Origin: Schmidtea nova
Taxonomy: Eukaryota
Direction: 5' to 3'
Length of the DNA stretch: 64,000 bases
Assembly (NCBI GenBank): GCA_044892505.1
Contig: CM097883.1
Location: forward strand, 48,422,001 to 48,486,000
The notes beneath the pieces were generated by a model that saw only the letters and a list, made by a program, of their open reading frames with translations, was not told where the DNA came from and did not search any database. The translations under genes and the position numbers were made by a program. Positions 51,701 to 54,700 of the stretch are shown piece after piece. Numbering within the stretch: the stretch's first letter is position 1; each line of letters starts with the position of its first letter.

Positions 51701-54700
51701 AGCAAATATGTGTTTCGAGAAGAAGATAAAACCACGGTTAGAATATGAGAAAGGACGAATCTTACGAGGAAATCTAAATTCCATGATAGAACAAATCATC
51801 CCACAAATCAAAAAACATAGAAAGGAGTTAATGAGAAGCGAATACGAAAAGTTGAAACGATGTATCGAGTGCATACGTGACACAAGTCACACGAGATGGT
51901 CACAGATCTCATACGGAAAAGTAATTGCCAAAATGGGAAAAGCAATGTTCAGACAAGGGAAAATAACAGATCTGAAAATTGCAGTAGAGTTACCTAATGA
52001 GGATACCAAAGAAATTGAAGTGGTAGCAGATTGTACCATAAAAGAATTAGTAAATGTCATCAACGAGACACTATTACAAAGAGAACCAGAAGAAGAATGG
52101 GAAGATGACATAATCATGAAATACAACGAACATGTATTATGGGATCACGATGAAAGACGGCTATATAAAATTGGTATATGGGATAATCACCAAACCATCC
52201 ACGTTATCAGAATGGACGATACACCAAGAGAAACTGCTAAGGATGAGAAAAGAGAACGGGAACGACAAAAAGAAGTTGTGCATAAATTACAACAAATAGT
52301 AGACATTTATCGAAATTGGCGGATTTGGCCAGAATGGGAAGATGTATTAGAAGAACTCAATCTCAACAGACGATTACGAACACCTGTAGAAAAACAATGG
52401 AACGAACGAGGAAAATGTTGGGAACCAAAAGCAGGCGAATACGAAGAAGAATATGAAATAAGCATAGAAGACGATCACAAACCGGAAACCGGAAGAGTCT
52501 GTATGGTAACAAGAAAAGCCATGCCAGCGGATTTAGACGGACCAGAAACGACAACCATGTGGTTGGAAAGAGAGAAACAAAAAACGGAAGAATTTGTCGA
52601 AATATTAAAAACCAATGCGCACGGCAAGAGAAAAGTAGTAAAAGGTCTCGCAGATTTTTTCGTAGTTAATGGAGAAGACATAACATGCTTGCGTAAAGTA
52701 GCAAAAGCAATCGCCGAATACAAAAGAGTTAACGAGTGGTGTCCAGAACAATTGGATCACGTAATTAAAAAATGGAGAAACCAAGAATTCTCGCAGGAAT
52801 CGCCACAGAAAGTACACCTAAGAATAGTATATCCGAACCAGGAAAAGGAAGAGTTTTGGGTAGGAATAGCGGAGAAAGTTCGAGACATTAAAAAGAAATT
52901 GAGATACGAACCACCATTCCATTTACAACACCAAGGACGATCATTGGATAACAGCTTAGAAATTGGAATAACGCCAGCGCAATTAGATATCGTAAATACA
53001 TTGACAGTGGCAGCAATAGCAGGCCAACCATTAAAATTGAAAGAGGAAAAGAAACCAAAAGGAAGTATGAGTACGCCGAGCCCAATGAAATCGGTAAGGA
53101 CTCCAGGAACAAGCTCAGAACAAGCTAGAACAACACCAAGAGAGACAAGAGAAAGAACACCACCAGAACCATACGATGTAGACGAAATTTTTACAGATAG
53201 CGATGATATGTTAGAGGAGTTAATAGAGCTAACAAAAGAGAAGGATGATAATATTTTCGAAAGAATTCAAGAATTACCAACAGCAATACCGGTAACCAAC
53301 ACCGAAGATGAAGTTGAACAAGAAATAATCATCGAAGAAGTAAATGAAATAGCAGAAGAGGAAGCAAGGAGGGCAAATGTAGAAAACGTACAATTCACAC
53401 AAGAAATGGAAAGATGGTTAGAAGAAAGAGCCAATGAACCAAGAGACGTCACAGAAGAAACTGGACGAGAAACAAGATTAGTAGAAACGGGCACGACAAT
53501 GGATAAACGACCTAGAGGTAGACCCAAGATGGATCCAGCAAATGTAGTTATAAAATCAAGAGAGGAAAAAAGACGGGATCAATGGGATTTGTGTCTAAAG
53601 AAACTAAATAAAATAGCCGAAACGAAAGAAAAAGAAACAACACAAACATACCAAGGCGAAGAATGGATATCAAAGATGTTAATGGAAATACTGGCAATAA
53701 TCGATCCAGAATTAAAGAAATGGTGGAGAATAAACGAAATAAGCGAAAGGGCGAAATCACTGCATAGCGCCATCGCACCAATCCTACCAGAACTAATAAA
53801 AGAGAAGACAAGGTCAAACCACCTAGATTGGCAAGGAACCACGATGTTGATAAAGAAGTTAACGGAAGGAGCAGAGACGGATAACAAATATTTAATAGCT
53901 ATGGCATACACCATTTACAATCTGCTGACACTGAGTAGAGGTCGACTGAAACCCACAGCACTTGAAAGACATATAAAGAATACAGCCAAAATTATAGAGA
54001 AGGAAATAGAACCGTACATCATCAGTAAAGGAGGATGGGAAACATTCACAAAAACGAACCAAAAGAAAAACCAAGCCAAAAATATGAAAAGGAAATTCGA
54101 AGAGATATTGGGAGAATTGGAAAAGGAAAAGTCGGGAACAGGAAACGGGAAATCATCACTAAACTTGAGTTCTATTATTATGATGATGTTAATATGGATG
54201 ATTAGTACTGACGGAGCAACAGCATTTGAAGTATTCGATTGTGATCAAATGGCATTAGGTGAGAAATATTCACTACGAGGGACAGAACAATGTAAGGACG
54301 CAACCCCAACGGAGCTAAAAACATTAAAAAAGAGACAATTATACCACGTATATCAGGAAGCTGAACTGATAAGAACAATGGTCAGAGAATGCAAAGTTTA
54401 TAAAACCAGATTTGCTTTTTATTGTGGGCACCGCCATTATTCAGCAATCGTGATGCCAGGAACGGAAAGAGAATCGGTAATGCTGCAAGGAGAAGACTGT
54501 GAAAAATTATTTAAACATGGGGAAGTAGAGACTAGAGATAGAGTAAAGATAAGAGGAAAAACGGGAGTGATATTGCAACAAACATATTATGTAGCAGGAG
54601 CTATTACGGGAGGAGAAGGGTACTGCCAAGGAGCAACATATCCAATATTCGGAGTAGCAGCAACAAACCTAGTGGTAATAGATACCTATACAGTAGAATT

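Follow-up and report, generated by a model that had tools for sequence, protein, structure and literature searches.

What is a Bcl-2-like domain doing directly upstream of an envelope glycoprotein (Env) in the polyprotein of a planarian retroelement, and does the hydrophobic segment between the two belong to the domain or to Env? Both questions arise at a locus of Schmidtea nova within a stretch of 64,000 nucleotides (contig CM097883.1, positions 48,422,001 to 48,486,000), referred to here as the window, in which the mapped parts of the element lie on the plus strand. Our overall reading, to which we give about even chances, is that a Bcl-2-fold domain in a Burro-type polyprotein is held on the cytosolic side of the endoplasmic reticulum (ER) by the Env signal peptide and acts as a divergent pro-survival factor.

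A recently inserted Burro-type element

The element, of the Ty3/gypsy type, is 28,479 bp long, with long terminal repeats (LTRs) of 3.3 kb and a flanking target-site duplication of 4 bp. Its 5′ LTR (42937–46214; 3,278 bp, TG...CA) is 99.8% identical to the 3′ LTR, which lies past the window end at window-equivalent positions 68138–71415, and this near-identity marks a recent insertion. Inside the LTR are two ORFs (44221–44751 and 45059–45654) that match nothing in Pfam and have counterparts in the subfamily A2 LTR; the second frame is broken up in the 5′ LTR, and the 3′ copy has it open. A few bases past the LTR lies a primer-binding site (46221–46238), which we take to be tRNA-Pro-like. An accessory ORF at 46540–47004 ends in a C3HC4 RING (PF13920, E = 1.5e-11) and has no BIR, and between it and Gag the 5′ leader carries tandem arrays (47418–48220) of a 61-bp unit with 30/31-bp halves and of units of about 42–55 bp.

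A single Gag–Env–Pol frame of 5,140 codons, counted from stop to stop, runs from 48720 through 64000 to window-equivalent 64139, with its first methionine at 49179 and 46 codons outside the window. Pfam matches along it follow the order zinc knuckles, fusion glycoprotein, protease, reverse transcriptase (RT), RNase H, integrase and ankyrins. Specifically, a capsid-like Gag region with CCHC zinc knuckles (49209–50039; Retrotrans_gag E = 6.9e-5, zf-CCHC E = 1.1e-8) is followed by two ubiquitin-like modules, each preceded by a helical module (51951–53030); the first ubiquitin-like module is a weak match to Pfam Ubiquitin_4 (E = 0.044) and the second was assigned by resemblance alone. After a basic RGRP motif (53508–53528), which we take to be AT-hook-like and whose counterparts occur in family B and in the Bcl-2-less relatives P0003, P0004 and P0006, comes the Bcl-2-fold domain, with nine predicted helical segments (53655–54059, residues about 1646–1780). 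A charged linker helix (54075–54128; low-confidence model) leads from its BH2 segment to the internal Env signal peptide (54153–54224) and a gB/chuvirus-type Env (54225–55973; PF24664, E = 1.3e-71) with a C-terminal transmembrane helix at 55929–55973. Pfam then places protease, RT, RNase H and integrase at 56547–59936, and an ankyrin-repeat region spans 60249–61958. The last unit (62202–63965) comprises a second internal signal-like segment (62202–62249), FN3-like repeats (weak Pfam match, E = 0.06) and a transmembrane helix (63912–63965), an arrangement that points to a multi-pass membrane polyprotein.

Some further features of these elements are recorded here. The helical module preceding each ubiquitin-like domain (52539–52790; L139:880–1131) has no Pfam match and is found also in P0003, P0005 and P0006; our hunch is that it resembles the TFIIS N-terminal bundle. 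The signal/FN3-like/transmembrane end unit also follows integrase in families B, C and D and is apparently present twice in subfamily A2. Just past the window, a TRAF-like accessory ORF with zinc fingers and a MATH domain (L051:689–2095; E = 5e-21) is followed by a coiled-coil ORF and then a small membrane ORF.

This organization is that of the Burro elements, which measure about 25–30 kb with long LTRs. In the available text of a 2019 review by Arkhipova and Yushenova, these planarian Ty3/gypsy retrotransposons are described as near 30 kb, with one huge ORF encoding Gag, Ubl, BCL2, env, protease, Pol and ankyrins (PMC6431247); in the window, one ORF likewise encodes Gag, Ubl, BCL2, Env, protease, RT, RNase H, integrase and ankyrins, with TRAF/MATH cargo alongside. 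The same source, citing Grohme 2018, attributes to Burro-2, -3 and -4 a BCL2-like motif preceded by a ubiquitin-like (Ubi2/SUMO-like) motif, describes an in-frame env flanked by BCL2 and protease, and raises the possibility that the elements interfere with host apoptosis (PMC6431247). It also describes a Dugesia tigrina element whose ORF1 has 5,140 aa, the frame length found here, and whose MATH/TRAF domain is on a separate ORF (PMC6431247). From architecture and frame length, we infer that the window element, also in a dugesiid planarian, is the same as that element or very close to it. The two descriptions differ in that the TRAF ORF is upstream in the review and downstream of the polyprotein in the window element (PMC6431247). 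A BCL2-like motif before env in Burro is hence already known and the domain itself is no discovery; as far as the available text goes, the review gives a motif call only, without fold, BH1 analysis or signal-peptide topology (PMC6431247).

BIR cargo of the Burro1 kind was found in another family of the genome and not in that of the window, where Pfam identified no BIR in the polyprotein or the scanned accessory ORFs. The BIR-bearing family is a high-copy, non-autonomous relative (G000 C1:119234955–119260038, L144–L148, and similar loci; 1,295 BIR candidates) in which the ubiquitin-like region is joined straight to protease and ankyrins, accompanied by TRAF-like and BIR-RING ORFs. No RT motif was seen in it, and no Bcl-2/Env motif was present in 11 of the 12 loci examined, the twelfth having no long frame.

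A predicted Bcl-2 fold with a degenerate BH1 motif

Copies of the domain are numerous: of 1,012 genome candidates, 150 were scored and all 150 match the window domain, forming two subfamilies at about 94–100% and 83–86% identity, many of them in frames longer than 5,000 aa. Comparisons were made across seven families (A1, that of the window, and A2, B, C, D, E1 and E2), which represent a sample of top-scoring copies and no census.

The first-pass annotation had recognized a BH2-like motif here, and its residues are indeed present, in frame and on the plus strand: IEKEIEPYIISKGGWETF spans 53994–54047 and ends in GGWETF. The start given at the time, 54006, is that of IEPY, a slip of 12 bases. 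Relative to the W..GGW pattern the segment reads YIISKGGW, with Y replacing the first W. The annotation had also proposed that TDNK replaces the BH1 signature NWGR, and this holds: TDNK at 53877–53888 falls in the NWGR register, the window domain aligning without gaps to family C across alpha4–alpha5 and family C aligning there without gaps to Bcl-xL. The Trp and Gly are lost and Lys stands for Arg. The BH1 Trp is absent from all seven element families and kept in nine of ten host Bcl-2 exons; the Gly, also absent from all seven, is missing from most host exons as well, and several host Bcl-2 genes likewise have neither the Gly nor the Arg. No BH3-like motif is recognizable in the element domains. 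An NWDR in locus L031, considered as a preserved BH1, is seen at only 1 of 30 loci, and the copy that carries it has a stop close by, for which reason the PDB search was redone with an intact family-C copy.

By itself, the window domain scores 13.7–13.8 bits against PF00452 (cut-off 31.4; E about 0.09). Single-sequence searches with it returned no match outside this genome among PDB sequences, clustered proteins (30–2,800 aa), the ESM Atlas or a separate set of 1.84 billion representatives; a family-C domain query found none among longer proteins, and a profile of family A alone had no Bcl-2 match. The connection runs through the other families. The family A profile reaches families B–E (probability 95.7, E = 8.6e-9, 124 columns), the B–E profile reaches six host Bcl-2 exons (E = 7.6e-9), the combined element profile reaches Bcl-xL (E = 1.7e-7) and the intact family-C copy reaches Bcl-xL in the PDB search (E = 1.2e-4); the direct step from family A to the host is weak (probability 36%, E = 3.8e-4). 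A PF00452 search of the genome recovers host Bcl-2 genes together with sister retroelements that exceed the cut-off, family-B copies among them. These comparisons show homology of the window domain to the Bcl-2 family, by a transitive route only.

The fold prediction points the same way. AlphaFold2, given a 20-row alignment, modelled the domain with a pLDDT of 74.3 and a pTM of 0.75 (five models, 71–74). In a VIA-align search of the model against 48,161 chains, the top match was Bfl-1 over 136 residues (rmsd 2.9) with a Z of 13.3, near the level at which caution applies to helical bundles in this method. Ranks 1–34 are all Bcl-2-fold chains, counting the A52, A46 and A49 rows, which we take to have that fold, and the first unrelated chain scores Z 5.6. 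Cellular pro-survival and BH3-binding viral proteins score 10.5–13.3, and N1L, A52, A46 and A49 score 5.7–7.9. The PDB rows shown by Foldseek are all of the Bcl-2 family (best E = 1.9e-3, TM 0.61), with herpesvirus v-Bcl-2 and A179L as the top viral rows; no row has E ≤0.001. The central hydrophobic alpha5 of a Bcl-2 helical bundle is present in the predicted model. A second model that included the linker and signal was poor (pLDDT 46; best Z 7.0, among unrelated bundles), indicating that the prediction is sensitive to its input. On these models, the window domain very probably folds as Bcl-2, as the first-pass annotation had supposed. It would share this predicted fold (Z 8–13) and the BH2 GGW with viral A179L, KsBcl-2, BHRF1, M11L, ORFV125 and N1L and with Bfl-1 and Bcl-xL, and its degenerate BH1 with poxviral members of the family.

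Conservation and selection

In all seven families a domain ending in GGW is followed by a linker, then by a hydrophobic segment and last by the Env start [YF]DC, and in the six families measured the Bcl-2 domain lies 52–67 residues from the predicted cleavage site. The domain is under purifying selection, with a dN/dS of about 0.05 in one pair. This value comes from A1 against A2 by the Nei–Gojobori method, with dS near saturation: 0.048 for the domain (131 codons), 0.037 for the signal and 0.075 for the linker, alongside 0.048 for the capsid, 0.054 for Env and 0.007 for RT. Single pairs from other families gave pN/pS values for the alpha4–BH2 core of 0.28 (E1/E2) and 0.41 (C/D), at 56–58% identity for the domain core against 85–89% for Env. 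In these lineages the domain is therefore maintained yet fast-evolving, which may reflect relaxed constraint or host conflict.

Carriers of the Bcl-2 domain belong to three deep RT lineages. They lie on one side of a branch with 53/62 support in an unrooted RT tree, and another tree differs; P0004, which has no RT, is excluded from these trees. A query with family B also found six database relatives in which neither Pfam nor the element profile detected a Bcl-2 domain and in which low-complexity sequence occupies its place. Upstream, five of the six have by eye a region of the ubiquitin-like type, and in P0008 Gag leads directly to the signal. P0003–P0007 carry two to four aspartic-protease-like stretches in their polyproteins.

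The Env signal peptide as a proposed membrane tether

The hydrophobic core downstream of the domain (54171–54203) is followed by a predicted signal-peptidase site, A-T-A, after the alanine at 54222–54224, immediately before the Env start FEVFDC. Signal peptidase follows a rule of small residues at −1 and −3. A site that fits this rule lies three residues ahead of [YF]DC in all 13 sequences compared, the other 11 offsets giving 0–8 of 13, and with the h-region and a polar c-region these residues make up a predicted cleavable internal signal at one register throughout. The proposal of a cleavable Env signal peptide is thereby upheld, and cleavage after 54224 appears likely on the basis of these residues.

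Cleavage in the lumen would leave the upstream product inserted in the ER membrane, not the mitochondrial one, with a cytosolic N-terminus, and the protease of the element would trim upstream of the Bcl-2 domain and not between BH2 and the signal. A precedent exists in flavivirus anchor C and hepatitis C virus (HCV) core, for which the accessible part of the literature describes how an internal glycoprotein signal, once cut by signal peptidase, also holds the preceding cytosolic protein at the membrane (PMC7601889). There, the upstream protein is the capsid and is later freed by NS2B/NS3 or by signal peptide peptidase (PMC7601889), a fate that could also await the Bcl-2 product: the tether would be transient, with the element protease or host signal peptide peptidase releasing a soluble Bcl-2. 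Consistent with such release, family A has a weak and short h-region (hydropathy 1.47 in its best 19 residues), the stretch of 36–50 residues from BH2 to the hydrophobic core is long and variable, and the viral Bcl-2 N1L has no tail and is cytosolic (PMC11209288, as available). Moreover, in families B, C and D the second internal signal follows almost directly after integrase, so that some release route must exist and may apply to Bcl-2 as well. Against it stands the linker, which is conserved in family A (dN/dS 0.075) and contains no protease-site-like motif between BH2 and the signal in any of the seven families; the motif, a loose pattern derived from recurring family-A junctions and weak outside that family, does recur at other family-A junctions. 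The missing motif favours retention. Release thus has a real but minor share of the probability, and we lean slightly towards a product of Bcl-2, linker and signal that stays in the membrane, with protease trimming upstream only.

A candidate anti-death cargo

The ER-tethered product, whose BH3 groove is probably altered, would make an element-expressing cell less prone to die. We regard such a pro-survival role as the most likely function, at roughly an even chance. With no BIR in the window family, the Bcl-2 domain is its obvious candidate anti-death cargo. In Burro1, B-IAP is reported to guard the stem cells of planarians against apoptosis mediated by caspases (Lee et al. Dev Cell 2026, as described in the available part of PMC13465017).

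Whether this domain could still engage BH3 ligands depends on how the degenerate BH1 is read. The sources, in the parts available, state that the NWGR residues Gly and Arg are important in binding BH3 and in family interactions (PMC9027176), that NWGR is not required in viral Bcl-2-fold proteins, and that poxviral proteins without recognizable BH motifs bind Bak, Bax and Bim, with N1L mainly inhibiting NF-kappaB (PMC11209288). In our data, a model of the domain in complex with a BH3 segment from a Bok-like host protein, built without the alignment, scored 0.02 and speaks neither for nor against binding; a scan of about 220 kb upstream of two candidate host genes turned up no canonical Bak/Bax BH3 exon. 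BH3 binding may have been lost, leaving the domain as a scaffold directed against innate-immune or ubiquitin signalling, or as an assembly spacer from Gag to the Env membrane. Such a role would suit the loss of the BH1 Trp and Gly from every family, the TRAF-like, RING and ankyrin cargo of the same element, the main role of N1L in NF-kappaB inhibition (PMC11209288) and the BIR-bearing derivative, in which Bcl-2 and Env are missing together (11 of 12 loci). It fits less well with the model, which is nearer to the pro-survival and BH3-binding proteins (Z 10.5–13.3) than to N1L, A52, A46 and A49 (Z 5.7–7.9), and with ORFV125, which keeps weak BH3 binding with SPGR (PMC9027176, as available). As a spacer, the domain is not needed in the six Bcl-2-less relatives, which have Gag, signal and Env without it. 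We consider loss of BH3 binding rather unlikely and retain the divergent pro-survival factor as the preferred reading.

Origin of the domain and of its membrane segment

The first-pass annotation had described the segment as a Bcl-2 tail anchor doubling as the Env signal. Under that description, a captured Bcl-2 gene would have brought its own tail anchor, later reused as the signal of Env. The segment does sit where a Bcl-2 tail would, past BH2 and a helix, and three host Bcl-2 genes have tails whose hydrophobic core lies 13–29 residues past BH2. In the elements, by contrast, that distance is 36–50 residues; two of the three host tails (L046 and L049) end in basic residues, and family A has none after its h-region. 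The segment is also internal, whereas a tail-anchored Bcl-2 ends in its own C-terminal transmembrane helix. Six of six Bcl-2-less relatives have that same signal and Env, with an unchanged cleavage register, and in family E the PF24664 glycoprotein match begins inside the signal, which forms its N-terminal part. Persistence of the segment in relatives without the domain, its overlap with the glycoprotein profile and its distance from BH2 together argue that it is not the Bcl-2 gene's own tail, and reuse of a captured tail is very unlikely. By descent, the description of a tail anchor doubling as a signal consequently does not stand; by topology, the Env signal may still serve as an anchor.

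The domain's likely source is a host Bcl-2 gene, taken up without the tail and placed in a low-complexity linker before a pre-existing Env signal. Trees single out no host donor; the compact host clade L026/L028/L040 gives the best host scores against the element profile. The compact, divergent host Bcl-2 genes L026, L028, L032, L040, L046 and L049 make up an expanded clade in which S replaces the BH1 Gly and some members contain stops, and they include the host sequences that match the element profile best. That the Bcl-2 likeness is a chance match between a helical bundle and a GGW motif, as the lone Pfam E of 0.095, the absence of matches in PDB sequences and large protein sets, the weak family A-to-host profile (36%, E = 3.8e-4) and a Z of 13 near the caution level might suggest, is highly improbable given transitive profile links at E of about 1e-8, the same position in all families, the clear Z gap between Bcl-2 and unrelated rows and the independent annotation in print (PMC6431247, in the text available).

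Relation to known systems and implications

Both B-IAP and the domain described here are anti-apoptotic or candidate anti-apoptotic cargo of Burro elements. B-IAP is a functionally tested BIR-RING caspase inhibitor on a separate ORF (PMC13465017, in part), whereas the window Bcl-2 module, a candidate anti-death cargo, lies inside the polyprotein. Viral and cellular Bcl-2 proteins, in the portion of the source available, are encoded by stand-alone genes of hosts or DNA viruses, and many of them have a true tail at the C terminus (PMC11209288). By contrast, the window Bcl-2 is an internal polyprotein domain whose sole membrane segment is the Env signal and whose BH3 binding is putative. The gene order is shared with the GAG-ENV-POL errantiviruses, in which a gB-type Env lies between a signal peptide and a transmembrane helix; according to the available material of Chary and Hayashi, such elements carrying an Env of the HSV/gB type occur in Platyhelminthes, Nematoda and Bryozoa (PMC13524379). 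The string 'bcl' appears 0 times in the main text and seven supplements of that study as available, and Bcl-2 cargo is undiscussed there (PMC13524379). A literature search, whose scope did not include Grohme 2018 with its supplements or Lee 2026, found no paper on a signal acting as an anchor in this way or on a test of the domain. Beyond the known motif, our analysis checks the fold, specifies which BH1 residues are substituted, documents conservation in seven families as well as purifying selection, and provides evidence tying the membrane segment to Env.

Should the product prove to be a survival factor held in the membrane, a Bcl-2 mimic would have come from the polyprotein of a reverse-transcribing element rather than from a DNA-virus gene, and the mutualism between host and transposon described for Burro1 would extend from caspase inhibition to the Bcl-2 checkpoint. 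A broader scenario, which we offer tentatively and consider doubtful on balance, is that capture of a tail-less host Bcl-2 before the Env signal created an ER-anchored death suppressor, produced in fixed ratio to Gag and Pol and working without NWGR, which, retained in hundreds of copies from three deep lineages and as a complement to the B-IAP of the non-autonomous sister family, could help to fix the threshold for apoptosis in planarian stem cells.
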